A stretch of 44,584 nucleotides of DNA from an uncultured Candidatus Saccharibacteria bacterium (GCA_964469405.1 CAYXYP010000007.1:1-44584), one strand, 5' to 3'. Counted from the first letter of the stretch, positions 4,528 through 42,400 are shown. Notes: a model not told the origin generated them from the letters alone. Made by a program: numbers and translations.

Positions 4528-5258
4528 CCCCAAAAAAAGGATTTTCAATAAAAACCGCCTCGTATGATGGCCCATTTGAAGTACTACTTGACCTTATCGA
4601 GGCGCGCAAATTTCTCGTCAACGACCTTGCGCTTGCGAACATTACTGAAGATTTTATTCAACACGTGCGAGCACAAGCGACATTTCCGGTTGAGGAGACC
4701 GCGAATTTTATTCACATCGCAGCCACACTGCTTCTCATCAAGTCAAAATCACTCATTCCCGATCTCACGCTGACCGAAGAAGAAAATGCAGATGTCGAGG
4801 ATTTGAAGCGACGGCTCGCGGCGTATGAGAACGTGCGCAATGCAACGCGTGAGCTCGCACGCATTTTTGGAAAAAATGTCATGGTACCGGCAGGGGAGCG
4901 TCCCCCCGAAGTCTCTTTCGCACCTTCTCGTGACCTCTCCGCTGCAGCACTTGCTGATACTCTTGCGCGGGTTCTTGCTGCGCGCGAAGCGGTCCAGGAG
5001 CTTCCTGAAGTGCGTGTGAAGCCACTCGTCACTATCGAAGAGATGATGGACCAGCTCGCAAAGCGTGTCGAAAGCGCCCTAACGCTTTCTTTTAAAGAAT
5101 TTGCCGGGAGTGCGAGTGAGAAAGTGGAGGTTATTGTTTCTTTCTTGGCACTCCTTGAGCTCGTCAAGCAAGGCGCGGTTGCCGCTGAGCAGTTTGGTCC
5201 TCATGGCGACATTCGCATCAGCCACACCGCTTCCTCCTCCGTCCCACGTTACGGGTGA
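4515..5258 (+). CDS. scpA: Segregation and condensation protein A
   Basis: YDGPFEVLLDLIE, AATLLLIKSKSLIP and FLALLELVKQG. Confidence 0.92.
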   Translation: METITPKKGFSIKTASYDGPFEVLLDLIEARKFLVNDLALANITEDFIQHVRAQATFPVEETANFIHIAATLLLIKSKSLIPDLTLTEEENADVEDLKRRLAAYENVRNATRELARIFGKNVMVPAGERPPEVSFAPSRDLSAAALADTLARVLAAREAVQELPEVRVKPLVTIEEMMDQLAKRVESALTLSFKEFAGSASEKVEVIVSFLALLELVKQGAVAAEQFGPHGDIRISHTASSSVPRYG

Positions 5259-22987: not shown

Positions 22988-23590
22988 ATGGACCATATTG
23001 ACGAACTCGCTCATGCGCTCTCCCGTCTCCCGGGTATCGGTCCCCGACAAGGAAAACGTTTTGTGTTCTATCTTCTTGCGGCTCCTGCCGCTGAGCGAAC
23101 CAAACTCGCGGAACTCATAGCGTCACTCGGGAAAGACGTCCGCCAATGCCCCGAGTGTCTGCGTTTCTATAATGGTTCTGCCGCTGTAATGTGCAATTAC
23201 TGTTCTGACATAAAACGTGATGATACTCTTTTGATGATTATTGAAAAAGATCAGGACCTCGCTGCTATCGAGCGTGCTGGTACCTATCGTGGCCGTTATT
23301 TCGTCCTTGGTGGCGTGCTGACACTCACAGGGAAAGGCGCGATTCGTGGGAAGGAGCTACTACGAACAATTGAGAAGAGACTAAAAAATAATTTAAAAGA
23401 GATCGTGCTCGCACTTTCGGCGACAAGCGAAGGTGAGCATACTGCCGATCATGTGCGAGAATTACTCGCGCCCTATCGTGACACCGTAAAAACTTCAGTC
23501 CTTGGTCGCGGTCTTGCGACCGGTAGCGAACTTGAATACTCTGACGCCGAAACCCTCCGCGCCGCGCTCACCAACCGTAAAGAAACCTGA
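22988..23590 (+). CDS. recR: Recombination mediator RecR
   Basis: LPGIGP, C4 zinc finger CPEC...CNYC, YFVLGG and ELEYSD. Confidence 0.94.
   Translation: MDHIDELAHALSRLPGIGPRQGKRFVFYLLAAPAAERTKLAELIASLGKDVRQCPECLRFYNGSAAVMCNYCSDIKRDDTLLMIIEKDQDLAAIERAGTYRGRYFVLGGVLTLTGKGAIRGKELLRTIEKRLKNNLKEIVLALSATSEGEHTADHVRELLAPYRDTVKTSVLGRGLATGSELEYSDAETLRAALTNRKET
23493..23590 (+). repeat. Direct repeat copy 1 (3' end of recR)
   Basis: 98 nt, 90/98 identical to 24351-24448, with the first 61 nt identical. Confidence 0.95.
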
Positions 23591-23593
23591 TTC

Positions 23594-23628
23594 TATACAT
23601 GAAGGGTTTCGTAAACCCTTCATGTATA
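23594..23628. repeat. Left REP-like hairpin
   Basis: tatacatgaagggttt-cgt-aaacccttcatgtata, a perfect 16-bp stem. Confidence 0.9.
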
Positions 23629-23640
23629 ATGATGAGTAAA

Positions 23641-24324
23641 ATGAATTTGTGGCATGTACTAAACCGAGGTGTTGAAGGACGCGACCTTTTCCTAGATTCG
23701 CAAGATTATGCACGCTTCGTTCACAACCTCTATGAGTTTAATGATAGCGCTCCAGCCGATAATCTCTCACGGCTTTTTGATCCGTCTGGAATAAGGGATT
23801 TCGTAAACCCCTCATTTAGAAAAGCACGCGAGCGATTAGTGGATATTCATGGCTGGGTCTTGATGAAAAACCACTATCACCTTTTACTCTCTGAACGTAT
23901 CGAGGGCGGTATTAGTCTATTCCTTCGTAAACTGAATGTCGGTTATGCGAATTATTTCAACGAACGATATAGACGAAAGGGGACGTTATTTCAAGGCCGT
24001 ACCAAGAAAATCTTAGTTGAGCGCGAATCGCATTTCCTTTACATTCTTCATTATCTTCACCTTAATCCACTTGATTATTTACAGGGCGCGCAAGAATGGC
24101 GTGCGCGTAGCAAGAGCGGCATTCGGAATGCAAACGAGGCGCTAGATTATCTTGATTCATACCGATGGAGCAGTTATCTTGACTATATCGACAAGAAGAA
24201 CTTCCCTTCCATCCTTACTACTTCGTTTTTTAAAGAAGCGCTTGATGATTATCAAGGTTCACTTAGAGAATACCTTGGCGATGCCGAGCATGATAATATT
24301 ATTGTAAAATTGACTTTGGAATGA
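23641..24324 (+). CDS. REP-associated tyrosine transposase (RAYT / Y1 HUH family); start may be 23632
   Basis: WHVLNRG, LMKNHYHLL (HUH), YFNERY-x3-GTLFQGR, YLHLNP and YRWSSY. Confidence 0.9.
   Translation: MNLWHVLNRGVEGRDLFLDSQDYARFVHNLYEFNDSAPADNLSRLFDPSGIRDFVNPSFRKARERLVDIHGWVLMKNHYHLLLSERIEGGISLFLRKLNVGYANYFNERYRRKGTLFQGRTKKILVERESHFLYILHYLHLNPLDYLQGAQEWRARSKSGIRNANEALDYLDSYRWSSYLDYIDKKNFPSILTTSFFKEALDDYQGSLREYLGDAEHDNIIVKLTLE
23791..23815. repeat. Degenerate REP-like copy inside the transposase coding sequence
   Basis: ataagggatttcgtaaacccctcat compared with atgaagggtttcgtaaacccttcat. Confidence 0.75.
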
Positions 24325-24347
24325 AGGGTTTACGAAACCCTTCATTC
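24319..24347. repeat. Right REP-like hairpin (inverted copy of the left)
   Basis: gaatgaagggttt-acg-aaacccttcattc, a 13-bp stem; its 25-nt core is the exact reverse complement of 23599-23623. Confidence 0.9.
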
Positions 24348-24350
24348 TGT

Positions 24351-24448
24351 CTTCAGTCCTTGGTCGCGGTCTTGCGACCGGTAGCGAACTTGAATACTCT
24401 GACGCCGAAACTCTCCGCGCTGCCCTCACCAACCGCAAAGAAGCTTAG
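24351..24448 (+). pseudogene. Orphan duplicate of the recR 3' end (direct repeat copy 2)
   Basis: Reads SVLGRGLATGSELEYSDAETLRAALTNRKEA*, with no upstream gene body. Confidence 0.9.
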
Positions 24449-24889
24449 TTAGACCTTTCCCTCTCCAGTCTGTTTCACTTCTACTGTCACTTTTGGAATA
24501 CCATCTCCATGCGCCGATGCGGCTATAATTTCCTGCACTTTAGCGACTATTTCTTTTGGATCGTACTGGCTCTTTACCAGATAGAGTACCGCCCCTAAGC
24601 TTAAGCCATTTTCAGCGTCGCTGTCGCCAGCCAAGTTGGTAAGCATGATGACGGGAATGCTTTTGAGTTTCTCGTCCTCTTTTACCTTACGCAATACATC
24701 AAAGCCGTTCATTTTTGGCATCATGACATCGAGTAATATTACAGCCGGTTTTTCTTCTGTTTTTTGTAATACTGCGAGAGCTTCTTCCCCATCGTGCGCC
24801 ATCGTGAGCTCGTGTCCGCCAAGACGGAATGCCCGCTCGTACATACGACTCATCAAAGGATCATCTTCTGCCATGAATAGTTTTGCCAT
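24449..24889 (-). CDS. Single-domain (CheY-like) response regulator
   Basis: MAEDD, ILLDVMMP, LTN and YLVKS; TATACT 7 nt before the ATG. Confidence 0.92.
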   Translation of the reverse strand: MAKLFMAEDDPLMSRMYERAFRLGGHELTMAHDGEEALAVLQKTEEKPAVILLDVMMPKMNGFDVLRKVKEDEKLKSIPVIMLTNLAGDSDAENGLSLGAVLYLVKSQYDPKEIVAKVQEIIAASAHGDGIPKVTVEVKQTGEGKV

Positions 24890-24915
24890 AGTCGTAAGTA
24901 TACTATACCTTGATA

Positions 24916-26646
24916 TCACTCGGAAATAGGCAGTGTGAACACGAAGGTACTTCCCTTGCCAAGCTCACTCTTCTCAATTCCTATGGTACCACCCATGCTC
25001 GAGATAATGAGTTTAGAAATATAAAGACCGAGACCGGTGCTCTGGGTAACGTCTCGTGCAAGCATCTGCTCTCCCGCCTGCTGGAACTTCCTGAAGAGCA
25101 GTGCTTGATTATGTTCTGAAATACCAAGACCAGTATCAATAACCCGTATACCGATGAAGTTACCTGCCACACTGGCTGTAATAGTAATACCGCCTTCTTT
25201 CGTAAATTTTGCCGCATTACCCACAAGATTAACGAGGATTTGTTCGGTTCTATTCTTGTCGGCAAACACGATAGGCAAAGGAGATGGCGGTGCGATATAC
25301 ACAAGGGACAACCCTTTCTGTTCGTCCATAGTTTTGAGATCGCGTACCACCTTTTCAACCACGTCAGACACATTGAAATTCTCTTTTTTAATTTCGATTT
25401 TACCTTGCTCAAGACGAGACACTTCAAGAAAGTCGTTCACGATATTGATGAGCCGAACACTCGAAGTATCGATATCTTGAAGCATTTCTTTCATATCTTT
25501 GTCGACTATTTTGTCTGTATACATCTCTAACATCATGTCTGCATTACCGCGTATGGCGGTAAGTGGTGTGCGCAATTCGTGGGAAGCAACCGCAAAAAAT
25601 TCATCGCGACTCCGCTCCATGATTTTTGCTTCAGTAACGTCTTCAATAAGCATTGCGTAGCCAATAACCGTCTCTTGCATATCTTGCGACGTCTCGTTTT
25701 TCATGATGATAGGGGTACAAAAAACACGCAAATATTTTTTCCCGTGAGAAATTTCTTTCAATTCCACGACTTTTTTCAGATCGATGCACTCCCGACAAGA
25801 ATGTGTGAGGACATCGAGTCCGGATGTAACCCCTTTGAAGGAATCGATGATACTTTTCATCGAGACCGGTTCCTCGGTAAGTTCCAGGATGGTCGACAGC
25901 ACTGCGTTTTTTACGATGACGTTGTCATTAAGATCGGCAATGACGAACCCGAACGACAGGCTGTTTATGGAAGCGAGAAGACGAGCCTGCTCCTCCTGCA
26001 ATTCCTTGGTTTTCTCTTTGACTTTCTCATCTACTCTTTTCTTTTCAGATATGAGCATGCGCTCATATTCTTTATTCTTTGTCACGTCAGTCTCGAGTCC
26101 AACAAAAAATTTTAGTTCGCCCTTGGCATTGACGACGGGAGATATTACCGCGAACGCCGTATATGTCTCGCCATTTTTTTTCTTATTTTGCAATTCACCG
26201 GCAAAGGTCTTTTTTTCATCTTTAATCGTCCGCCACATATCGGCATAAAACTCCTTCGGCATCTGCTTCCCCCACAATGATGGCTTACTACCTATTATTT
26301 CCTCATGCGAGTATCCGGTCAGTTTCTCCACTGCTTGGTTCGCATAAATGACAACACCGCTAGCGTCGGTAATGACAACGTGCTGGGACGTATTTTCAAC
26401 GACAAGCTGAAACTTCTGCAATTCTTCCGCTCTTTCTTCCGACTTTTTCTTTTCTTCGGAAAGATCGTCAAGTAAATTTAGTGTCGCTTTTTTTGTATTT
26501 TCCAAATCAATCAGTTTCTCTTGCAATTCCTTATTGATGCTCCCCAGCTCAGCGGATCTTTTTTGCAACTGGAACTCGGCCTTTCCCAAGGCTTTTTTCA
26601 TCTCATCGAACTCTTTCAATAAATTTTGAATTTCATCAAGAGCCAT
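24916..26646 (-). CDS. Soluble PAS-domain sensor histidine kinase
   Basis: Coiled coil, PAS (VITDASG...LTGYS), H-box SHELRTPL, N-box NLVGNAAKFT, DTGLGI and GLGL; no transmembrane segment seen. Confidence 0.92.
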   Translation of the reverse strand: MALDEIQNLLKEFDEMKKALGKAEFQLQKRSAELGSINKELQEKLIDLENTKKATLNLLDDLSEEKKKSEERAEELQKFQLVVENTSQHVVITDASGVVIYANQAVEKLTGYSHEEIIGSKPSLWGKQMPKEFYADMWRTIKDEKKTFAGELQNKKKNGETYTAFAVISPVVNAKGELKFFVGLETDVTKNKEYERMLISEKKRVDEKVKEKTKELQEEQARLLASINSLSFGFVIADLNDNVIVKNAVLSTILELTEEPVSMKSIIDSFKGVTSGLDVLTHSCRECIDLKKVVELKEISHGKKYLRVFCTPIIMKNETSQDMQETVIGYAMLIEDVTEAKIMERSRDEFFAVASHELRTPLTAIRGNADMMLEMYTDKIVDKDMKEMLQDIDTSSVRLINIVNDFLEVSRLEQGKIEIKKENFNVSDVVEKVVRDLKTMDEQKGLSLVYIAPPSPLPIVFADKNRTEQILVNLVGNAAKFTKEGGITITASVAGNFIGIRVIDTGLGISEHNQALLFRKFQQAGEQMLARDVTQSTGLGLYISKLIISSMGGTIGIEKSELGKGSTFVFTLPISE

Positions 26647-26665
26647 AAACCTTTTTGAAAATTAC

Positions 26666-27349
26666 TCAGTCCTCCTTATACTCTCTTAGTCCGACAATTC
26701 CCGTTTCCAAAATTTTCAGCGGTTTTATAACTATGAACTTGATTAAGAGCCAAAGAACGAGAGTCAGGAGCAAAAAGCTCGAAATTATAATCAAAGAAAT
26801 CTCGCGCTGTGCCTTAAAAATATTTGCGTTCAAACTATCAAGCGTATAGTAGGTCTCTACTACGCCAATTACCCCGTCGTCTGTTTTGGATTCTATAGGA
26901 ACATATACTTCCATCAATTGCGTATAACCTTTCTCCGCCACATGTTCCGCATCCAGAGGCATCTTGATGTCCGCCACCACTTCGCCTCCGATTGCTTTCT
27001 GGAAATACGCATTTTCTCTAAAGTTCTTTCCGATGATAGATGTATCATCGGAAAAAATAATCGTGCCGTCTGTATTCCACACCTTAATGCGTATAAGGTC
27101 ACGGACTTTAACCTCTTCCAGAAGTTTAATGAACACTTGGTCTGTCTGATTTGAATCCGCCAAGGAAAAATCCGCCGGTGACGTGTGCTGTCTCGTTTGA
27201 ATGCTTACGAAATCGGCAACAATATTTTTGGATCCCTCAATCGCTTCTTGCCGCAAAATCGAGTTTACTTGATACGTCAAGATAGCACCGATGAACACTA
27301 GAGCGGCGAAGATGGGAACTAAGAACTTCTGGGCAATACCTATGTTCAT
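26666..27349 (-). CDS. Two-transmembrane protein with Cache-like extracytoplasmic domain and no output domain
   Basis: TM, then RIKVWNTDGTIIFSD...EVYVPI...IGVVETY, then TM and a short tail. Confidence 0.7.
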   Translation of the reverse strand: MNIGIAQKFLVPIFAALVFIGAILTYQVNSILRQEAIEGSKNIVADFVSIQTRQHTSPADFSLADSNQTDQVFIKLLEEVKVRDLIRIKVWNTDGTIIFSDDTSIIGKNFRENAYFQKAIGGEVVADIKMPLDAEHVAEKGYTQLMEVYVPIESKTDDGVIGVVETYYTLDSLNANIFKAQREISLIIISSFLLLTLVLWLLIKFIVIKPLKILETGIVGLREYKED

Positions 27350-28737
27350 GATTTCATCCTACCATGCCCATCGAGCCGCTCCCCCTGCTCCAGGTCAGGC
27401 GGTGAGGTGCTCTTTAGTTTTGCTATTTCATCCTTGAGTTCCGACATCTTCACCTCCCGATCAATCATAAATTTATTCAAGTGCTCTAGTTCTTCGGATT
27501 TTTTCTGAAGCTCCTGTACTCTTCCCAGAATTTCGTTATTTGATGCGATAAGCTCCTTCCCAATTGTGTTGAATGATTCCCCGACTTCCCCCAATTCGTC
27601 ATTACTCAAAACTATGACCTCTGTCGCCTTCCCGCTTATTAATTGCTTCGCGATATTTTCAAAGTTGCACACAGTGCGAGCCACAAGAATATAAAATCCA
27701 ATGAAGACATAAAAAATAAGTATGTAGCTAAGTATCGTAATTCCAACAATTATCTGCTTATCACTCTGGAACCGTTCAACACGGTGGTGAAGAAGATCAT
27801 GAAGAGACCAAGACAAAGAATCCCGGAGGGAGAAATTCTTATCAATAACAGCTGTTGAAACCGTGTAATACTCGAGTAATGGCATCTCTACTTTATTCGT
27901 ATTGACGAACGTATCCAGTAACGATGCAAAGTTTCTTACAGACACAGACATATCCTTCAGAGGATTGTCGAAAACTGCTACCAGAGAACTGGTCTGTCCG
28001 AATGCAACCTGAGTATCCCTTTTTATTTTTTCATCCGCAACAAGAGCTATTTTCGAGTAATTAATGATTACTCTCCTATCAGCAGCAGCAGCAATCTTTT
28101 TTGGGTCATCAATGCTAAGTACGAATTCCCGTGCTTGACTGAGATTTTCGGAAAGATCCGGAAGCGTATTCACAACGGTATTCATGAGATAATACGTGTC
28201 GAGATCCGGATCAAGAATTAAATTCGATATGTCACCGATATAACGAATTAAAATAAAGACATCTGAGATAAGCTCGGTATGCTGACGAACGCTCTCTTTT
28301 AGCGTTAATTGTGCGTAGTTTTTTTCCAAGGAAGCCCATTTTTTCTGAATGGCACTTAACGACTCTGTCGTTCGGAGCTCTTTCCCAAATTCTTGATCTT
28401 TTACGTTAATTAAAACGAGATCCTCTTTTATTTTATTTTCTTTCTCCTCAAGGAGGGGCAAAAAAGATGTATCACCCCGAAGATATACGCTCGCCATGTC
28501 ACGATGCTGTTGGAGATCTTGAAGAAGAATACCTACTGGAAACAGATAATGGACACCGCTAATTTCCTTTTCTGAAAAAGCAATGCTTCTATCAATCTGA
28601 GCAGTAAAAGAAAAAAGGGCATAACCAACGGGAATCGTGAAAAGAATTATTATCAGGGTAAATTTCTGCCAGTACCACAACCGGCTCACGAGTATGACCG
28701 CTGGAGCAAATATTCTTTCTACGACAGCTCTTATCAT
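27346..28737 (-). CDS. Membrane sensor-like protein with helical extracytoplasmic domain, HAMP and coiled coil, no kinase
   Basis: Two TMs, NFISDISNLILDPDLD-type receptor motif (YIGDISNLILDPDLDTYY), HAMP-like SNDELGEVGESFN and coiled-coil tail LNKFMIDREVKMSELK. Confidence 0.7.
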   Translation of the reverse strand: MIRAVVERIFAPAVILVSRLWYWQKFTLIIILFTIPVGYALFSFTAQIDRSIAFSEKEISGVHYLFPVGILLQDLQQHRDMASVYLRGDTSFLPLLEEKENKIKEDLVLINVKDQEFGKELRTTESLSAIQKKWASLEKNYAQLTLKESVRQHTELISDVFILIRYIGDISNLILDPDLDTYYLMNTVVNTLPDLSENLSQAREFVLSIDDPKKIAAAADRRVIINYSKIALVADEKIKRDTQVAFGQTSSLVAVFDNPLKDMSVSVRNFASLLDTFVNTNKVEMPLLEYYTVSTAVIDKNFSLRDSLSWSLHDLLHHRVERFQSDKQIIVGITILSYILIFYVFIGFYILVARTVCNFENIAKQLISGKATEVIVLSNDELGEVGESFNTIGKELIASNNEILGRVQELQKKSEELEHLNKFMIDREVKMSELKDEIAKLKSTSPPDLEQGERLDGHGRMKS

Positions 28738-28743
28738 ATATGG

Positions 28744-30240
28744 CTATCCCCCACTCGTGAGGCGTCTGGTGAACACATAGATGGGGTATGCGAGCACCAG
28801 CATGATGAGAATGATAGTGATAAGCGTGAGCCGGTTTGTGGCATTCACAATGTCGAGAATATCCTGTTGTGGTTTTGCGGCCGAGAGCATACCGACGACC
28901 TTATCGTCGCCGCTCATGAGCGGCAGATAGCTCGCAAGAAATGTCTGGCCAAAGAAGCTCGCCGATGCTGTCACATTCTGGCCGCCCTTGAGTACCGAAT
29001 TTTCCACCTCGCTGTTCCCAAGCGGGATGTTGGTCAAGCGTGTACGGCCATCCTCGGTAAACGCGGTCGCCGCGATAGACATATCGTTCTCATAGACAAA
29101 CATCTCAAGCCCCGTAACACGCTTGATGCCGTCCACAAGCGCATTATCGAGCGGATAACCGGCGATGGCCGCACCAACCACCTTACCCTTGTGCGTGACG
29201 GGCGCGCCCGCGCGAATAGAAAGCTTCTCCACGGGACTGTTCTCAACCGTAACGAACGTTGTACCATGAAGCGCTTCTTCAAGCGCGCGTTCTCCCGAGA
29301 GAGAATCTCCGCGTTTTGAAAGCGCATGTGCACGGATAAGTACGGTGCCCTGTGCGTCGGTAATGGTTACGAATCCGAGGGTATAACGCTCCATAAAACT
29401 CTCCGCTATCGTCTCTAGTGTCAGAAAATCGTTTGTGGCAATCGCGTCCCCGAGCCGAGGATCTGCCGAGAGAAGTGCGGTTTCCGCGAGCGATTCTTGC
29501 TGCAGCCCTTTGATATGCAAATCCAGTACCCGAGCATCGGTAAGAAGACTCGTTTGCGTCTGACTGGTTATCTGCGTAATGAGAATAGTTGAGAACGCGA
29601 GCGTGACAATAGTCGAGAGGAGGAGCGCTACCGAGATAAAGATAATGATTAGACTTTCTTGAATACGCAGAGCAAGAAACTGCCATACCCATGCGATAAG
29701 GAACAAGAAGCCAGCCAGCTCAAATGCATAACCCGTGAGAGAAAAGAGACTGATCTCATTACCCTTCGCAAAAATCGTAAGCACTGATGCGATACCAAGA
29801 AGTAAAAAAGCAATTGAGAACGACCTCCACGTAGGATTGAATTCCTTTTTTGATTGCAAATTTGAAGCGTATGCAATGGCGATAAGAAGAATCGCCCCGA
29901 CACCGTGAAGCAATCCTTCAAAAGCCGTAAAGGAAGGGATGATGAGAATAGCCGGCATTGCCGCGAGCCGTTGTTGTTTAAGAAAGCTGCCAAGTATGCA
30001 AACGAGCCCTATGACAAAGAGCGTAAAACCGATAAAAGAGAGCAAGTCACTCCCCGTATTAATCGCGGCAATAACTTGCCACAGTGCAACAAGTCCAAAA
30101 CCAAAAGTTCGCACCAGTATTCTCCCCTCTTTGCTCACCGAATACGTATCAAAGGTAAGCCATGCCGCCATGAAGAGCGCTACCGCTCCGAGCAACTCAA
30201 GCGCGAAGTGAAAATTATTTATAAAGAAATAAAAGGACAT
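28744..30240 (-). CDS. Multi-TM membrane protein with Cache domain and no output domain
   Basis: About 7 N-terminal hydrophobic segments, Cache-like FVTITDAQG...GKVVGA...VVGML, and a C-terminal TM; TACACT 8 nt before ATG 30240. Confidence 0.72.
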   Translation of the reverse strand: MSFYFFINNFHFALELLGAVALFMAAWLTFDTYSVSKEGRILVRTFGFGLVALWQVIAAINTGSDLLSFIGFTLFVIGLVCILGSFLKQQRLAAMPAILIIPSFTAFEGLLHGVGAILLIAIAYASNLQSKKEFNPTWRSFSIAFLLLGIASVLTIFAKGNEISLFSLTGYAFELAGFLFLIAWVWQFLALRIQESLIIIFISVALLLSTIVTLAFSTILITQITSQTQTSLLTDARVLDLHIKGLQQESLAETALLSADPRLGDAIATNDFLTLETIAESFMERYTLGFVTITDAQGTVLIRAHALSKRGDSLSGERALEEALHGTTFVTVENSPVEKLSIRAGAPVTHKGKVVGAAIAGYPLDNALVDGIKRVTGLEMFVYENDMSIAATAFTEDGRTRLTNIPLGNSEVENSVLKGGQNVTASASFFGQTFLASYLPLMSGDDKVVGMLSAAKPQQDILDIVNATNRLTLITIILIMLVLAYPIYVFTRRLTSGG

Positions 30241-30260
30241 GCTAGTTAAGTGTAGCCTAC

Positions 30261-30294
30261 TTATTGCAAGATTTTTTCTATCTTGTTCATAAGT
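30261..30294 (-). repeat. Orphan duplicate of the redoxin gene 3' end
   Basis: 33/34 identical to 30819-30852; encodes LMNKIEKILQ*. Confidence 0.9.
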
Positions 30295-30343
30295 GTGGAT
30301 TGGCACCGATGTTCCGTTAGTTACACTCTTTTTTAAAAGAACG

Positions 30344-30565
30344 CTATTTTAGATCTTCTATAGTTAGTCCTGCATCTTTCATAATGCTCGAAAGAGTGCC
30401 AGCTTTGAGTTGTTTATGGAGTGGCACGGTAACTTTTTTCGCATTCGGATTAAAGTCAGGAGGGTACAATCTGGCGTGACTCCCCTTTGTTCTTACTTCG
30501 GAATACCCTTTCCGTTCAAGAATTTTCATCAGCGCGATACCAGAAAGTACGGGCAACTTTGGCAT
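30344..30565 (-). CDS. hicA: HicA family toxin
   Basis: KILERKGY...TKGSH...VTVPLH...GTLSSIMK pattern. Confidence 0.88.
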   Translation of the reverse strand: MPKLPVLSGIALMKILERKGYSEVRTKGSHARLYPPDFNPNAKKVTVPLHKQLKAGTLSSIMKDAGLTIEDLK

Positions 30566-30568
30566 GCG

Positions 30569-30781
30569 TCAAACTGTAATCAGATGGAGGCTTACGTCAT
30601 CGTTTTCTACCGAAAAATTTTTTTGATCCTCAAGACATAGAAGCGTTGCTTCTTTGATATTCGCAAGGGCCTCTTCCACCGTCTCGCCCTGAGAGTAGCA
30701 ACCCTCAAGAGCGAAGTTGGTTACCGAGTAACCACCCTCTTTTTCCTTTTGCAGAATTATAGGATACATGCCATGTTGCAT
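30569..30781 (-). CDS. hicB: HicB family antitoxin, short form
   Basis: GGYSV...GCYSQGETVEEALANIKEA; TGcTATACT 6 nt before ATG 30781. Confidence 0.88.
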   Translation of the reverse strand: MQHGMYPIILQKEKEGGYSVTNFALEGCYSQGETVEEALANIKEATLLCLEDQKNFSVENDDVSLHLITV

Positions 30782-30818
30782 GTCGACAGTATAGCACACA
30801 GAGAAATGGGACAAGGTT

Positions 30819-31385
30819 TTACTGCAAGATTTTTTCTATCTTGTTCATAAGTACGCGCTGGCTGAGTACACCAGAATATACCTCTCGAATGACCCCAGCA
30901 CGATCCACAAAAAAGAAGGTCGGTACGCTCTTAATACTGTAATGCTCGCTTGTAATACCTTCTGCATCAAGAAGTGTCTGCACCTGATATCCTCCGCGCC
31001 TCATAAACGAGGAAACGACACTCTTTTCTTCTTGGCTATCGATGGCAACAACTTTTACCAACCGGTTTTGCGAAGTTGTATCTGCAAGATACTGGTCAAG
31101 GATATGTATTTCGTCAGCTGCCTGTGTATTCCAGGTCGACCAAAACACGATGACGAGAGGAGTGTCGGTGAAGTCACTACTCCGCACGCGGTCTCCGATG
31201 AGATTAGGCAAGTCAAAATATGGCAGCCGATTGTTCAAGAGCCCTACGCCGGAGATAGGGGCACCGGTAGCATTCTCCCCCGTAACATCGAGTACGAGTC
31301 CTGACCCGCCCAGATACACAACACCGAAAAGAGTAGCGAGCACCGCCACACCAATGAGCAGAGTTGTGAGATGAGAAGTTTTCAT
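30819..31385 (-). CDS. TlpA/ResA-like membrane-anchored redoxin lacking cysteines
   Basis: FDLPNL-x-G, VIVFWSTWNTQA, SVPTFFFVD and G-x-IRE; no Cys anywhere in the protein. Confidence 0.8.
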   Translation of the reverse strand: MKTSHLTTLLIGVAVLATLFGVVYLGGSGLVLDVTGENATGAPISGVGLLNNRLPYFDLPNLIGDRVRSSDFTDTPLVIVFWSTWNTQAADEIHILDQYLADTTSQNRLVKVVAIDSQEEKSVVSSFMRRGGYQVQTLLDAEGITSEHYSIKSVPTFFFVDRAGVIREVYSGVLSQRVLMNKIEKILQ

Positions 31386-36425: not shown

Positions 36426-39400
36426 TTAATTGCTCGTCGGAGTATTTTCCGGAGGAGAAGCAGGGGCGGATGGTGGCTCGGGTTCATGAGTAGGCTCCGG
36501 CGCAGGTTCAACCGCTGGCTCTTCTAGTGGCGGCGCAGGCGTATCAGAGGTTGGTTCAACTACCGGAGGATCCTCGATGACCGGAGGCGTGGATGTTGCG
36601 CCGGTCTCTTCAGCCGGTGCGGCTTCTGGCGGGGTATCCTTGGCTAGCGGTGTTTCTTCGGAAGTCGGTTCCTTGGATGGAGCAACTTCAGGGAGAACGT
36701 CTGGTTCGGATTGGGCTGTGTTTCCTTGGTTTTCCGGCACCGACTCAGGCGGAATCTCGGGTGGATCTTCGGGTGCAGCTGGCACTACTGATACCGATTC
36801 AGTGGTGCGCGCGCCCTTCACCGCGAGCGCGATCCAGTTGAAGGAGATGTCTTCTCCTGCGGGTTTGTTCAAGAATATTGTGAAGCCGGTCGTCGTGGCA
36901 TTGCCGATCAGGAACCGTATGTCTTTCCCGAGGAGCGCTTGGATTGCTACAGCGCTTTGCTTGCTTGCTGCGATACCGTCCGAACTAGACAGGGTTGCAT
37001 GTACAACTGGCTTTTCAAGGTATTCGCGCTCGAAGGCGATGCGCACTTCGCTGTCCCCTTTCTTCACCACGGCAAAACCGGCCATATCCCGCGTGAAGTA
37101 CGGTGTGCCGAAGAAGATGATGTCGGGATTGACCTTGATCGCCTCGGCAAGCGCATCGAGCGTGTCTACACGCAGGCCGTTTGCGACGATGCGCGGCGCG
37201 AATATCTCGATCCCCGCATTCAGGCGATCAGTAAATATCTCGGAATCGAGCGAAGAATTGCTATCAATCGTCGCCTTGTAGTCGCGGAGGAATTCGAGGA
37301 TATCGAGCTCGCGATCAGCAGTAATGAGCGTCGGAGTAGCGGCGGCTTGCGGCGAGCTAGTCGAGACGGCAGTGAATGTCGCGGTCGTGGTCGTAGCCGA
37401 GAGCACGAACACATCTTCGGGCACGCACTCTTCGATCGTGCTCGCCGTACCGTCCGTACTCGTCACACTGTCCGAGGCACCACACGAAGGAAGCGCGGGC
37501 GCCGCCTCCGTATTTTCGCTTGCTGGCACAACCCCCTCCGCAAGCGCAATCTCCTTCTTTTCATTCATCAAGACCGAGAGCGAGAGGCCGCCGTAGTCCA
37601 CGAGATTGACGAACACCATCACCTGCCCGCATCGCTTCTTCGACAATCCTTCCAGATCATCGGGGCAGTTTGCAAGCTGTTCGACATCCATATTCTCCAG
37701 CGCCGCGCCCATCACGCGCCCGGCTTTCGTCGCACGCATGCCGTACCCAGCGGTGGGCGAGGCCGCGATGCGATCCCCCGCTTTTATAATGCCGTTTTCA
37801 GTCGTTACCTTCACCGGCACGCGGCCGACGAGTGCGACGGGGTAGGTGTTCTCCACGTACGCGCCAAGAACAATACCGGGCTTTGTCGCAACCACACCAA
37901 GTACATTCTTTTGATACGCGCTCGTCGCCATACGCACTTTCTGCGCTTCGGTGCCGTCCACCGCTACAATGTGTCCCGCCTCGAGCGGATCGTCAGAGAC
38001 GTAATTTTCCGCGAGGTCGACGCCGTTGCCTACTCCCAGCGTGTTTTGCGTAGAGCCGAACAAGTAGTGCGATATCAATTCTTGCTGGATTCCGTTGATG
38101 GCGCCGATAAGGAGAAGACGGTCCTCTTCCGCGCTCGCATCGCTCTGCGTAGCGCGGATGAACGCGAGCGATCCGTATGCAACCGTGCCGGATTGCACCG
38201 CAATCGCCTGAATGTCGTCCGCGTCAGTTCCCGACCAAGCGCTGCCGAAGTCGTCGGCGGAGACATCTGCATCAGAGTGAAGGGCGTCGATCACATACGA
38301 TCCAACACCTACGTCAGAAAGAACAGTCACCGCACCTCCGTCCGTACCATCACTCGTACCCACGTAGACACGCCGCGCTTTGCCGAACTGCACCATCGGG
38401 TCAACCGCAACGGCAGTCACATTGTTACTCGCACCTATCAAGTGTTCGGGGTCAACCTCAAAATCCGACGTGGTATCCGGTGTCGTGCCCCAGTTGGATT
38501 GCACGGTAATCACGGTCGCCGTGTTTGAAATAACGCGGCGCGTCTGGCCCGCACCCGTACCCCCCGTGATGGTGACTATCTTGCCGACAAACTCGTTCGG
38601 AATCCACGCCTCACCCGAATCACCAATAGTATTCACGCTCACCGTCGTCGCGGCCGTAACGGCTCTGTTTTTCTGCATGAGATGAGTGCGGCCGTCGAGG
38701 TAGAGCACATTTGCTCCGTCTGTAGTGACACCGCTCGCCGTTGAGGCGAGGTTTGAACTCCAAACGAGGTCGTCGATAGAACCGTCCCAAAAGTTCGCCC
38801 CTGTTGTGCAGTTGGCGGCCGAACATGTTCCACCGACGGTAACTATTTGAGTGGTTGCGGTGTCGAGTGTGGCAGCGGCGGTGAGCCCTGTGTCGCACGC
38901 CACAGCCTGCTTACCATCGATGTACATACAGATATCGGTGTCGGTGTTGGTGAAGACTGCGTGATGCCACACGTTGTCATTGTAGGTTCCCGTTGACGTA
39001 ATAAGGTCATCGTAAGATGTTTGGAGAGTAAATGTTGCATCATCGTCAATAGCGAATATTATATTGCCGGCCGCATTCATTCCTGTATAAATGCATCCGA
39101 CTGTCTGCGCCGGAGTCGAGTTCCAACATCTTTCAACCAAAGTATCCGCTGCTGCTGTCACACTGTGTTTGAACCAAAGAGAAATAGTAAAACTCACGGC
39201 AACGACGTTGTAATCGGCATCGCTGTCGCAGGTGCCGTCAGCGTTTGCATCGGAACACAGGTATGAGTTGTTATTAAGGGCCACCGAATTACCGCGGACG
39301 CCGTCCCCGCCGAAAGTGGGGGCTGTCGCGGCGGCGCTGTCGAGAACATTACGCGTGGAACCCGCGACCCCCATGGCGCTGTGCGATCGTGTGGCCCCAG

Positions 39401-42400
39401 TCGGCTCCTCAAAGAGGAACACACTGCGAGGAGCCGCTGGGCGAAGCGGAGTCGAGGTCGCCGTCGTAAGTACCTTCGTCCACGAGCCGGACGTGCCCGC
39501 GATAAGGTTGCCACCCGAGTCGTGAATCTCGACGAGGCCGAGGTTGGTGCCGAAGAGCACGACATCACCCGCATCGTTGTTGCTGGCTGCGGCGGCTTCT
39601 TTCGCCTTCGAGGCACGTTCAATAACTGAAATCGTTGAAGGCGAGGTGAGAATGGTCGGCACCGCACCGGTAGCGGTGATCGCACCATTGGCCGCCGTCT
39701 CATCGTACGTCTCGTCGGGCGTGCCGTTCGCCTCGGCTATGAGGTCGCGATCCAGGTTGCGCCATGTCTCAAGTTGGGCTTGGGTTTCATTTGCCGCGTA
39801 CATACGGCCGCGCGAGGTCAAATGTACCGTGTTGTAGTCGTCGTTTGTTACATCCGAATAGTTCAACACTTTTTGGTATTCGGGGTGGATAACGCTCACG
39901 CCTGAATCATTCGCAACCGCGACAAGCACCGTGCCGCGCAAGGGGCCTGAACCGGAGTCGAGCGGCAAAGTGGGGGTGTTACCCAGCGCGTCCGCGTTAC
40001 CGAGTTGCATCGCCGCCGAGACGTCGTTGACTACTCCATTGAGGATCCCGAGACTGGTTACCGCATTCGTCGCATATGCAGTAGTTGTGTTTCTGTTCGC
40101 GATGTCCTTGTCTCCCTGTGTTCGATCGACCGCATCGTAGTTGTACATACGGTCTTGCGTAAAGTCGAACGCGTAGAGTCCCGTTGCCGATGCGCCATTG
40201 GCGCCGACATAGATAACGCCATTCACCGCGCCGACACCAGACGGATTGTTGTTGGTATCTGCGCCAAGCGCGAAGGTGCCGCCAGACTGTGTGAATTTCA
40301 TCCAAAGAGTGTTGTCCTTGGCGTCGAAGATATAGAGGCCGTCGACAGTCGTCGCAAGAATCGCTTTACGGGGGAATTCGGAAGAACCGCATCGATCGTC
40401 TGTCGCGATAACGCACGGATCCGACGGTCCGTCGTCCTTCGTCTCCGTGTACCACGAGAGTCCCGAGGCCCTGTCGTTCTTGCGCCAGGCGCCTTTGTCG
40501 CTGTCCTTTGTCGTGTCATAAATTACCATGTCTATGATGTTGGCGAGTGAGCGCTGGATCGTGTAGCCCTTACTTATGACGTCACCGTATACGTTGATAT
40601 CCGAACGACCATTTTCGGCACTCCCCACCGTAAGACCTCCCGTCTCGGACACAGCGAAGAGGTCAACCCCCGCGTCGTCTTCAACGAGCACTGGGAAACC
40701 TGTGTTTTGTGACTGGTCCACAACAATGTGGAGTCCATTGCCCGTGTAGGCATTTGCATCTACGGCATCCATCGTTATCTGGAGCGCGTCACCTGAATAC
40801 GTTCCGCCTGTTGCAGGATTCGGCGAGAGCTGAAGGAGATCGTGAGAACTGCCTGCTGCTGCCGTCTCGGTAATCACGACTGGAGTTGCCGCTGCAGTCT
40901 CAATCGTTGCTCCACTAGTGTATGCGTCTTGCAAGTTACTGCTCCCGCCACCACTTATCGTACAGTCGGTCTGCCCTGTACCGTTCACACAGTTCACTCC
41001 CGCACCAGTGAAGTTGAGGGTTGTAAATTGCGTGAGCGGAGTGTCTTCATTTTCAATGGTTGCATATCCCCCACCACCAGCCGATGATGTCGCCATAAGT
41101 ACCAGGCCGCCGGTAACGTTTGACCACCCAACGACTTGGCCACCAGTACCTATTCCGTAGAGTGTGGAGGTCGCGATAGCTGTTGGAACCGCGCTCCCTG
41201 CCGTTCCGTTCGCTAAGACGGTATTTGCCGCTTGTGCTGAGAGACTTCCGCCACTGAGACACGTGCCGTTCACCGCGTAGCATTGGTTCGCTGCAAGGTT
41301 GATGCCGTTGCCGTAGAAAGTGGTGGTGCCAGTGGTGAAGTTGGCGATGCCTTGGATGGAGAGAAGTGAGCCAGGGGTGGTGGAGCCGATGCCGACATTC
41401 CCGTTATCAAGAATCTGCATCAGTGTCGTAGAGGCATTATTGATGACTGAAAATGCCTGCCCGATGCCTGTGCCGCTGCCCCAAACAGAGAGTTTTGAGT
41501 AGGGCGAGGTGGTGCCGATGCCCACGTTGCCAGCGGTTGTAGAAAGTAACACCGTCCCATCAATGAGTGATGTTCCACCCAGTCCTACATTATCAACCCA
41601 CAAAGAGTAGTTTTTACCCGAGACGACGGTGGTGGTAGCGGCTCCTTCTATGTAGAAAGAAGCGGTGTTGGAGACGGTGGCGGCACCAGCAGTAATAACG
41701 AGTGGTTTTATAGCGAATTGGGAAAAGAGAGGGTGGTTTCCTGACACTCCTTCAGTGGGAGAAAGTTGTGATACTAGTATGCGAGCAAACGAACGGTCTG
41801 AAAGGATAGCTAGAGCCGGGCTTGTATTAGCGAAGGCGACTACTGCAGCAGTGTTAGCAGAATTAAGTGTAAGCGTGCTGTCAGAAAACCACATTTGTCC
41901 AGCAATTCGCAACTGTCCAGTAGCGCCAGTAGCGCCAGCGTCAAGAGAAGAGCTTTCTAGAAACATTCCATTTCCAGTGAGTGTACCCGTTGAGGTAAGA
42001 GATGTACTAAACGTCTTTCCCCCTGCAATCGTCTGCGTCCCCGTCGTTACCAATCCATTCGCCGTTGCTGAAGCAGGCGGGATATTTAATGTATGCACGC
42101 CCCCAGCAGAAGTAATCGTAAAGTTTGTACTGGCTGTCGTGGAAGTAGCAAATGTTTGTATTGCTCCAGTTTGAGCATTGAGAGAAGTGATACCGCCAAG
42201 ACAAGAACCGTTCACCGCATAACATTGGTTCGCTGCGAGATTGATACCGTTGCCGTAGAAGGTAGTGGTACCGGTAGTGAAGTTGGCGATGCCTTGGATG
42301 GAGAGGAGTGAGCCAGGAGTAGTGGTGCCGATGCCGACGTTTCCATCATTCATCACCGTGAAGAGCGTCGTCGAAGCAGAGTTAGCAATTTCAAGTGCTT

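Follow-up and report, generated by a model that had tools for sequence, protein, structure and literature searches.

Small Cassettes of a Groundwater Saccharibacterium Lie between Two Alleles of Their Host Gene's Tail

We analyzed a 44.6 kb stretch of one genome of an uncultured Candidatus Saccharibacteria bacterium (GCA_964469405.1, CAYXYP010000007.1:1-44584; hereafter "the window"), derived from groundwater (Hainich) metagenomes. A preliminary description of this DNA had reported that two very small modules, one encoding a RAYT-like transposase and the other a hicBA toxin-antitoxin pair, follow the stop codons of recR and of a redoxin gene, respectively, and that the tail of each host gene reappears on the far side of the module. 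We refer to the module as a cassette and to the second copy of the tail as the orphan. Measurement of the repeats bore out this architecture, with spacings of 858 and 558 nt. Here we report that both cassettes are insertions, that the orphan is the resident gene tail and the copy attached to the gene the newcomer, and that the same arrangement recurs in related genomes with other cargo. We also consider how such cassettes, in which we found no integrase, may have been inserted and spread.

Two Cassettes Flanked by Gene Tails

Cassette 1 lies between recR, whose synteny with dnaB is kept in 80 related species, and a response-regulator gene. Its features are as follows; L numbers, here and below, designate contigs, i.e., loci found via exact-protein look-ups or pattern scans.

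22988-23590, plus strand: recR, host gene of cassette 1 (Pfam RecR_HhH, Toprim_4, RecR_C)
23493-23590, plus strand: gene-attached recR tail (copy 1), of which the last 37 nt are a non-resident allele
23594-23628, no strand: left REP-like (repetitive extragenic palindrome-like) hairpin with a 16-bp stem (DNA fold -14.9 kcal/mol, z -9.5)
23632-24324, plus strand: RAYT-like Y1 (HUH) transposase gene, 230 amino acids (Pfam Y1_Tnp; HYH and YLHLNP motifs)
24319-24347, no strand: right REP-like hairpin with an inverted loop (TACG versus CGTA; fold -12.8 kcal/mol, z -8.2)
24351-24448, plus strand: orphan recR tail, the resident tail, in frame and with its own TAG at 24446-24448
24449-24889, minus strand: response-regulator gene, convergent with recR and its native right-hand neighbor (Pfam Response_reg; gene call in L001)

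Cassette 2 is encoded on the minus strand, between a redoxin gene and a gene for a Cache-domain protein.

30819-31385, minus strand: TlpA/ResA-like thiol-disulfide oxidoreductase (redoxin) gene, host gene of cassette 2 (Pfam AhpC-TSA, Redoxin)
30819-30852, minus strand: gene-attached redoxin tail (CAG TAA), which in sister strains measures 36-37 nt
30569-30781, minus strand: hicB antitoxin gene, 70 amino acids (Pfam HicB_lk_antitox, 37 bits; gene call in L010)
30344-30565, minus strand: hicA toxin gene, 73 amino acids (Pfam HicA_toxin, 58 bits)
30261-30294, minus strand: orphan redoxin tail, the resident tail (CAA TAA), matching the empty sites described below
28744-30240, minus strand: gene for a Cache-domain membrane protein, native downstream neighbor of the redoxin gene (Pfam sCache_3_3, dCache_3)

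The recR repeat (23493-23584 and 24351-24442) comprises 92 nt with four mismatches at a spacing of 858 nt, and runs 6 nt further in register to the stop codon in both copies, giving 98 nt in all. The redoxin repeat (30819-30852 and 30261-30294) comprises 34 nt with one mismatch (CAG/CAA) at a spacing of 558 nt; on the orphan side, homology to redoxin alleles of the QST type extends to about 30302. As described earlier, the copies differ almost only at synonymous sites: in recR there are four synonymous third-position changes, one Thr/Ala codon and the stop codon, and in the redoxin gene the single difference is synonymous. The HicA and HicB domains are adjacent and both score above their Pfam cut-offs, as in HicAB type II toxin-antitoxin systems, and the redoxin matched the ResA and DsbE models of NCBIfam, in all cases under the cut-off.

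The preliminary description had also placed each orphan hard against the next gene. At recR this is literally so, the orphan TAG touching the response-regulator stop codon at 24449-24451. At the redoxin gene, the orphan had been said to lie just before the -10 element of the Cache gene, but no Cache promoter was found by a simple sigma-70 scan. The true start of the Cache gene is the ATG at 30240 (498 amino acids in L010), with the orphan tail 20 nt upstream; a mechanically called open reading frame (ORF) from the GTG at 30306 (28744-30306) swallows the orphan.

Shared 20-mers less than 3 kb apart occur in the window only at spacings of 558, 858 and 942, and in none of 100 dinucleotide shuffles. 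The spacing of 942 represents a 180-nt direct repeat (41257-41436 and 42199-42378, 81% identical) that encodes an internal protein repeat of a giant protein (2704-amino-acid ORF, 36426-44540) and is unrelated to the cassettes. No integrase or recombinase domain was found among the window ORFs scanned, in agreement with the earlier description, nor in any of the cassettes examined (about 12).

Empty Sites and the Resident Tail

Uninterrupted forms of both junctions were found. In L024 and L025, contigs from two further data sets, recR is followed immediately by the response-regulator gene. The recR body of these contigs is 100% identical to that of the window, the encoded RecR differs only in its last residue (...RKEA), and the recR tail is 100% identical to the window orphan. 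At the redoxin/Cache junction, a tail-pattern scan of metagenome contigs yielded three empty sites, i.e., L112, from the same aquifer and with a Cache protein 95% identical, and L113 and L115, from more distant species. All three have the orphan version (...CAA TAA) at the end of the redoxin gene, with the Cache gene immediately behind it; the window orphan is identical to the redoxin end of L112 and L115 and shows one A/G difference from that of L113. No hits were obtained when species-representative genomes were scanned for the Cache protein.

Because empty sites exist at both junctions, the cassettes are insertions that left the host gene intact, as had been proposed. Since the empty sites carry the orphan version, the orphan is the resident tail, and the gene-attached copy is the newcomer that arrived with the cassette. 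The earlier suggestion that each cassette had brought in a gene tail from another allele is thus upheld.

Among the refutations named in the preliminary description was that the duplications are assembly or binning chimeras; as chimeras of coexisting strains, they now have a negligible chance of being explained. A mixture of strains is indeed present, and several contigs end exactly 55 nt into the repeat. Four of them end at 30798, and others start at 30852 or end at 30260; we considered these ends as possible circle or tandem junctions and rejected them, because strain single-nucleotide polymorphisms (SNPs; at 30853-30855 and 30258-30259) converge on an identical block and so break the k = 55 assembly graph. 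The cassette structures were present in 13 (recR), 11 (redoxin), 14 (hicA) and 12 (RAYT) contigs drawn from different samples. Each of the two was seen in ten or more independent assemblies, and was assembled through by SPAdes as well as by Logan. An assembly artefact is therefore effectively excluded at the occupied sites. Sequencing depths were also coherent. In run X6, a 61-mer within the recR repeat had twice the depth of the cassette. In run X7, unitig depths were 49.7 for the cassette, 70.6 for the response-regulator side and 121 for the shared 61-mer, which fits about 70% occupied and 30% empty recR sites; in X5 and X6 essentially all sites appeared to be occupied.

Circular or tandem forms of the cassettes would contain predictable joints (marked by slashes), namely ...CCCTTCATTCTGT/CTTCAGTCC...ACCTGA/TTCTATACATG for the RAYT cassette and ...GGTGCCAATCCAC/ACTTATG...CAGTAA/AACCTTGTCCC for hicBA. 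No such joints, tandem copies or excess cassette depth were seen in Logan contigs, which are built at k = 31, so that a junction across an identical repeat of 30-61 nt lies beyond their resolution.

The Two Tails Are Different Alleles

Occupied and empty recR alleles showed no difference in 840 nt of flank. The attached recR tail nevertheless differs from the resident one at eight sites, all at or beyond 23554 (i.e., in the last 37 nt), the 61 nt before them being free of differences (P = 2.5e-4). An identical recR body with eight differences clustered in the tail indicates a recombination mosaic rather than divergence in place. Two other contigs, L026 and L027, have the same recR body and RAYT gene but a third allele of those 37 nt; they also carry a compensatory pair of changes in the hairpin stem, so that the patch extends over 66 nt (23554-23619, 10 SNPs). 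L027 has a further patch of 124 nt, with 12 SNPs, inside the RAYT gene (23703-23826). Patches of 66 and 124 nt in kilobase stretches that are otherwise identical show that recombination tracts in this population are very short.

Differences between tail and orphan were pooled over seven independent cases, and fell on codon positions 1, 2 and 3 in the ratio 28/27/79. This third-position excess is significant both against equal use of the three positions (P = 1e-9) and against a model of duplication in place (P = 8e-4). The reading frame and stop codon were kept in six of the seven orphans, that of L065 stopping one codon early. Together, the excess and the kept frames imply that both tail copies evolved as coding sequence for most of their separation. 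We also compared the attached recR tail with other alleles, a check proposed in the preliminary description; it resembles the clade consensus, but an exact donor was not found among the recR neighborhoods fetched from 80 related species.

At the redoxin site, strains with identical HicA had no SNPs over the 592 nt from 30261 to 30852, i.e., the tail, hicBA and the second tail, whereas the flanks differ by 12%-22% between strains, a divergence that sets in 1-3 nt beyond each tail. The alleles surrounding this block number three on the redoxin side and two on the Cache side. Identity of hicA is inherent in the exact-protein look-up, but the other 370 nt of the block are free of that bias. The sharpness of the block therefore argues that the unit of tail, cargo and tail is exchanged between strains, with crossovers confined to the tails. 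The low-coverage contig L022 joins a Cache side of the window type to a redoxin side of the L017 type, with the switch inside the identical hicBA block; this contig is a genuine recombinant or else the product of a chimeric path in the assembly.

Both tails contain inverted repeats (CAAGAT..ATCTTG in redoxin, GGTCGC..GCGACC in recR), but these are no more stable than in shuffled sequences (z -0.9 to -2.3). As the stability was not significant, and the recR hairpin is not kept in L059, we rejected them as targets of a recombinase or HUH enzyme.

The Same Architecture with Other Cargo

A scan of related genomes, as the preliminary description had advised, revealed the same architecture with different cargo at recR, at the redoxin gene and at rmuC. 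In L059, recR is followed by a 338-amino-acid ORF of no known family, a 76-nt orphan recR tail and the native terminator hairpin; this orphan is 87% identical to the attached tail, with 12 synonymous and 3 non-synonymous codon differences. The rmuC gene, which lies a few kb from recR, is the host gene in four species. Its cargo is Phd/ParE plus a 259-amino-acid ORF in L065 (70-nt repeat), an 85-amino-acid ORF in L049 (172-nt repeat), and RusA with a Phd relic, followed by two successive orphans, in L055. In L029, two cassettes follow one another in the order rmuC, RAYT-like gene, orphan, Phd/ParE, orphan. Such orphan arrays occur in L055 and L029, but not in the window itself.

The redoxin/Cache junction of L108-L111 and L114, whose redoxins are 79%-81% identical to that of the window, carries a gene of a second RAYT family (RAYT2) instead of hicBA. 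RAYT2 is 35% identical to the window RAYT and has inverted hairpins of its own, and the orphan at this site is identical to the window orphan in L109 and nearly so in L108 and L114.

Overall, the cassettes range from 0.4 to 1.6 kb, and the orphan begins within 10 nt of the end of the cargo or of its hairpin. The length of the duplication varies even at a single gene, being 70, 105 or 172 nt at rmuC and 76 or 98 nt at recR. The cargo found comprised RAYT-like genes, HicAB, Phd/ParE, RusA and ORFs of no known family; restriction-modification genes were not among them. Since cassettes occur at several genes and with varied cargo, the phenomenon is general in the clade and not a property of one cargo or one host gene. 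Named relatives of the RecR belong to Kaiserbacteria, Paceibacteria or Patescibacteria.

Relatives of HicA elsewhere in Patescibacteria occupy other flexible spots; in one case, a T5orf172 gene is flanked by a 64-nt repeat. In L121-L124, a 3-kb island containing SHOCT, hicBA, a 346-amino-acid ORF and OmdA lies between two full-length, diverged DsrE genes (at about 1536-1920 and 4660-5044). The promoters and 5' parts of the DsrE copies are 89% identical, and their differences fall 12/7/52 on codon positions 1/2/3. This island represents the same principle with a whole gene in place of a tail. We rejected repeats in L034 and L079 as tail arrays; they are in fact internal repeats of giant surface proteins.

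We found no sign of a vector among phages or plasmids: viral contigs gave no match to the RAYT protein, the REP hairpin or the tail pattern, and plasmids gave none to the RAYT cassette.

The RAYT-like Gene and Its Hairpins

The RAYT ORF scored 24 bits against Pfam Y1_Tnp (cut-off 23). Its best NCBIfam match was REP_Tyr_transpos (NF047646), at 34.5 bits; the scores obtained with this model, 34.5 and 41.9 bits, are both below its cut-off of 80, so that the curated family model was not matched. An alternative start codon at 23599 falls inside the left hairpin, and the right hairpin overlaps the RAYT stop codon, the gene thus being bracketed by REP-like hairpins in inverted orientation. The left hairpin shows compensatory stem changes in L026, L038, L063 and L099. 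A further copy lies within the gene:

23789-23816, no strand: third, degenerate hairpin copy in the RAYT ORF, coding for GIRDFVNPSF

This coding segment reads GVRDFVNPSF in L099, and the left hairpin, read in frame, gives MKGFVNPSC; judged from these sequences, the flanking hairpins and the segment within the ORF appear to be of common origin. Stem covariation was seen across species (GAAGGG/CCCTTC, GATGGG/CCCATC, GAAAGG/CCTTTC and GATGGAC/GTCCATC). In the window, as in L063, the 4-nt center (CGTA/TACG; within 23601-23621 and 24323-24343) of the right copy is inverted relative to that of the left one; in L099, the two copies have the same center.

No dispersed REP-like hairpins were found elsewhere in the 44.6-kb window. 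In runs X6 and X7, some metagenome contigs match the hairpin alone (23598-23623 and 24320-24344) and then continue into unrelated sequence, and one X6 contig, at a depth of 106, joins the internal and right hairpin copies. Because of these hairpin-only matches, we conclude that the hairpin exists outside this cassette, at further loci or in other community genomes, perhaps in the form of REPIN-like doublets.

Genes of the Y1/RAYT-like type, of two families and in either orientation, lie downstream of recR in 8 of the 80 species (L029, L038, L063, L067, L068, L077, L099 and L107). Most are at the junction of recR with the next gene; that of L029 lies about 4 kb downstream, behind rmuC. The region downstream of recR is thus a preferred home of RAYT-like genes even in the absence of a duplicated tail: at none of these eight loci did an orphan recR tail behind the RAYT-like gene score above shuffled sequences.

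Older Events at the Redoxin Site

Two features at the edges of cassette 2 bear on its history and on the upstream region of the Cache gene:

30804-30818, minus strand: relic of an earlier RAYT2 cassette, AACCTTGTCCCATTT (from alignment with L108, L109 and L114)
30241-30260, minus strand: conserved stretch with TAYACT, between orphan tail and Cache start (from alignment of seven sites, both occupied and empty)

The sequence AACCTTGTCCCATTT, at the start of the hicBA cassette, corresponds to the right arm of the RAYT2 left hairpin plus the next bases. Upstream of the hicBA orphan, CAATCCAC corresponds to codons of the QST-type redoxin allele found in the species that carry RAYT2. From this hairpin relic and these codons, we conclude that hicBA replaced RAYT2 in an older cassette.

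Apart from one A/G position, the redoxin tail does not vary across occupied and empty sites, although the redoxins themselves are only 67%-100% identical. Almost no nucleotide variation was seen from the last 11 redoxin codons to about 15 nt past the stop codon (GNAGGCTAYACTTA; 30241-30302). Judging by this conservation, the stretch of about 50 nt formed by the tail and GNAGGCTAYACTTA is probably a regulatory element for Cache expression that overlaps the coding end of redoxin. Such a role would explain why only insertions that duplicate the stretch survive, and why it provides a universal homology arm. The redoxin orphan is probably also retained through its overlap with this conserved upstream element.

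A Proposed Mechanism

On balance, we lean toward the view that the cassettes were inserted, and have spread, by host homologous recombination on conserved gene tails, with no dedicated integrase. The ends of recR, rmuC and the TlpA-like redoxin gene stay near-identical across strains and species, and would thus provide portable homology arms. DNA from a relative in which a gene tail is joined to a small cargo would pair with the resident tail, and the resulting recombinant would carry the imported tail on an intact gene, with the resident tail pushed downstream as an in-frame orphan. Repeated events would generate orphan arrays. Once formed, a unit of tail, cargo and tail would move between strains via crossovers within its two tails, and recombination of tail with tail would delete it, restoring the empty site. 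The first event would need either an illegitimate joint or a circularized fragment, and the incoming DNA may have been a linear molecule with one-sided homology and an illegitimate join, a circle, or a tail-cargo-tail molecule bridging sister chromosomes. In L038, a RAYT homolog follows recR directly, with no orphan, which is a plausible donor arrangement.

Routes of this kind have precedents. Homology-facilitated illegitimate recombination is a known source of such joints (references in PMC5361080), transformation can drive duplication through alternative repeat pairing across sister chromosomes (PMC3784515), and Patescibacteria have kept genes for recombination and are considered competent (PMC12455944). 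The process would presumably depend on RecA and on DNA uptake, and the host population is probably recombinogenic and competent. Cargo that is addictive or self-maintaining, such as toxin-antitoxin or RAYT genes, may be enriched because repeat-flanked inserts are otherwise easily lost.

The preliminary description had envisaged a sub-kilobase circle entering by a single crossover. This fares less well, since the recR differences all lie in the last 37 of the 98 nt, unlike the prediction of a plain Campbell crossover. With an orphan that is wholly resident and an attached tail that is mosaic from position 62, the recR data are matched better by one-sided homology and an illegitimate joint at the far end than by a plain Campbell crossover involving a diverged donor. 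The hicBA block, for its part, is consistent with crossovers inside each of the two tails.

Alternative Explanations

It is unlikely, although far from absurd, that the cassettes are integrase-less satellites, similar to cis-mobilizable elements (CIMEs) or integron cassettes, with the tails as attL and attR and a tyrosine or serine recombinase acting in trans from elsewhere in the genome or from a helper element. Integrases that target gene 3' ends and supply a replacement tail are well known (e.g., ICESt1 at fda), and att-flanked elements that lack an integrase are well known too. The re-use of insertion points by different cargo, the arrays, the compactness of the cassettes (with the orphan so close to the end of the cargo or hairpin) and the hicBA identity block that stops exactly at the outer ends of the repeats would all be accounted for. 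On the other hand, about 12 cassettes contained neither an integrase nor a fragment of one, and no integrase was seen in the window; repeats at a single gene span a wide range of lengths (70-172 nt), no common motif is evident among the tails of recR, rmuC and redoxin, and the inverted repeats within them are not significant (z -0.9 to -2.3); the short-patch mosaics, moreover, indicate general recombination. We regard as improbable a true target duplication created on the spot through staggered breaks, replication template switching or a transposition-like event of unknown type, followed by divergence of the attached copy under coding constraint and of the orphan under neutral or regulatory constraint. 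Such an event would match the literature framing of "insertion with long target duplication" (PMC2853133). The redoxin orphan is, moreover, strongly constrained at the nucleotide level across species, the attached copy being 76% identical to it in L108 and about as diverged in L109, and constraint on the orphan would likewise give mostly synonymous differences. This explanation must contend with eight differences in 37 nt of recR tail, against none in the preceding 61 nt or in 840 nt of flank, with the third tail allele in the same background (L026 and L027), and with a third-position excess above that expected from the model (P = 8e-4).

Even less credence attaches to capture by the RAYT protein, an HUH enzyme that, acting in cis or in trans, would cut at the hairpins, release single-stranded circles with the adjacent gene tail and integrate them, by analogy with ISCR/IS91 capture and subsequent homologous rescue. 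RAYT-like genes with strong hairpins are the cargo at recR, at the redoxin gene (L108-L111 and L114) and at rmuC (L029), the hicBA cassette retains the relic of a RAYT2 hairpin, and 8 of the 80 species have a Y1 gene at the 3' junction of recR. Eight RAYT-like loci next to recR, however, have no duplicated recR tail, and the tail cassettes of L049, L055, L059 and L065 have neither a RAYT gene nor comparable hairpins. Identical RAYT is known from one context only and, to our knowledge, Y1 transposases insert without target duplication. Action of RAYT in cis is thus unlikely: REP-like hairpins occur only in RAYT cassettes, most tail cassettes are RAYT-free, and RAYT-like genes can sit beside recR with its tail unduplicated.

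Several considerations weigh against homologous recombination on gene tails as well. The homology of 34-37 nt at the redoxin gene is near the lower limit for RecA-dependent exchange, and a site-specific recombinase would equally be expected to leave a block that stops precisely where the tails have their outer ends. The origin of the first right-hand, illegitimate joint remains unexplained, and no circle, tandem or other intermediate was observed. The recR empty contigs are of low coverage or were assembled at k = 31, below the 61-nt perfect repeat, so that collapse of an occupied site is possible; the redoxin empty sites are free of this problem because their repeat is shorter than k. Exact-protein look-ups make the identity of recR, hicA and RAYT partly a matter of construction. 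Finally, the analysis covered 44.6 kb of the genome, and a recombinase may be encoded elsewhere in it.

In a broader and decidedly doubtful form of the idea, Patescibacteria would possess a general, integron-like system of cassette capture and exchange, with 3' gene tails as portable attachment sites. Units, either circles or tail-cargo-tail molecules, would circulate between strains and species and stack behind recR and rmuC, driven by host recombination functions alone or by an unrecognized recombinase.

Relation to Known Systems

The preliminary description had offered these cassettes as a candidate for an undescribed system. That claim has to be narrowed, because insertions with long target duplication (PMC2853133) and orphan 3' ends in Rhs and type VI secretion system (T6SS) loci (PMC5361080) have already been described. 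Furuta et al. (2010), after Nobusato et al. (2000; their reference 37), defined "insertion with long target duplication" for restriction-modification units flanked by direct repeats of more than 30 bp (46 to about 420 bp) that are single at the empty site (PMC2853133). No other mobile element was involved, most of the hosts were naturally competent bacteria, the mechanism was unexplained, and two cases from Haemophilus have a repeat that overlaps a gene's 3' end (PMC2853133). The present cassettes are similar in that empty sites exist, the repeats exceed 30 bp (98 nt and 34-37 nt) and are single there, and no integrase was found. They differ in the cargo, which is RAYT-like, toxin-antitoxin or RusA genes or ORFs here and restriction-modification there. 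As to the absence of any other mobile element, the hicBA cassette agrees, but the recR cassette itself encodes a Y1 transposase-like protein. The hosts here are Patescibacteria, and successive orphan arrays occur. Above all, the two repeat copies here are different alleles, one resident and one imported, and the event is therefore an import with displacement rather than a target duplication.

In T6SS clusters, Kirchberger et al. found old 3' ends and immunity genes displaced behind new ones; they cited the same idea for orphaned Rhs 3' regions, and the route proposed was homology-facilitated illegitimate recombination (PMC5361080). As in Rhs, contact-dependent inhibition (CDI) and T6SS orphans, an upstream anchor here receives a new 3' end with linked genes, the old end is displaced, strings form, and no integrase is involved. 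In those systems, what is displaced is a variable toxin domain together with its immunity gene, and the advantage lies in keeping immunity, whereas here a housekeeping tail without obvious use (the redoxin tail perhaps excepted) is displaced and the cargo is unrelated to the host gene. By analogy, the rmuC arrays may be regarded as the housekeeping-gene counterpart of the Rhs and T6SS orphan strings.

With integrative and conjugative elements, integrative and mobilizable elements and CIMEs, a tail supplied by the element keeps the gene intact, the repeats equal the gene 3' end, and tandem accretion leads to arrays. The intact gene, the 3'-end direct repeats and the arrays are shared by the present cassettes, but these have no integrase, nor has the window; they measure only 0.4-1.6 kb, and their repeat length is variable. 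They differ from integron cassettes in that IntI is absent and the repeats are coding gene tails, so that the pairing of attC with IntI is not seen. In Neisseria, minimal mobile elements are alternative cassettes between conserved genes that are exchanged by transformation and homologous recombination. Exchange without dedicated mobility genes is common to both, but in Neisseria long flanking genes serve as arms and no gene tail is duplicated; the term "minimal mobile elements" appears in PMC3082526. Like REP/RAYT systems, the recR cassette has a single-copy Y1 HUH gene with inverted REP-like hairpins in an extragenic position at a gene 3' end (PMC3116915, PMC3337134). It differs in scoring below the cut-off of the curated model and in the lack of dispersed REPs in the window, and tail duplication is no known property of RAYTs or of IS200/IS605 elements. 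What is new here is the host lineage, the cargo, and the demonstration that the two "target" copies are different alleles.

Implications

How "insertion with long target duplication" comes about has been an open question since 2000. The aquifer from which the window derives offers a natural study population, in which occupied, empty and alternative-cargo sites coexist and are accessible to analysis of individual reads. For annotation, orphan tails inflate ORF calls and may be taken for assembly errors or pseudogenes. Classical mobile elements are scarce in ultra-small Patescibacteria, whose gene content is nevertheless variable. The conserved ends of genes may be all that small selfish modules need as landing pads in order to enter, stack and move between diverged strains without an integrase; if this is true, streamlined, competent bacteria would have in it a simple, general way of gaining genes.

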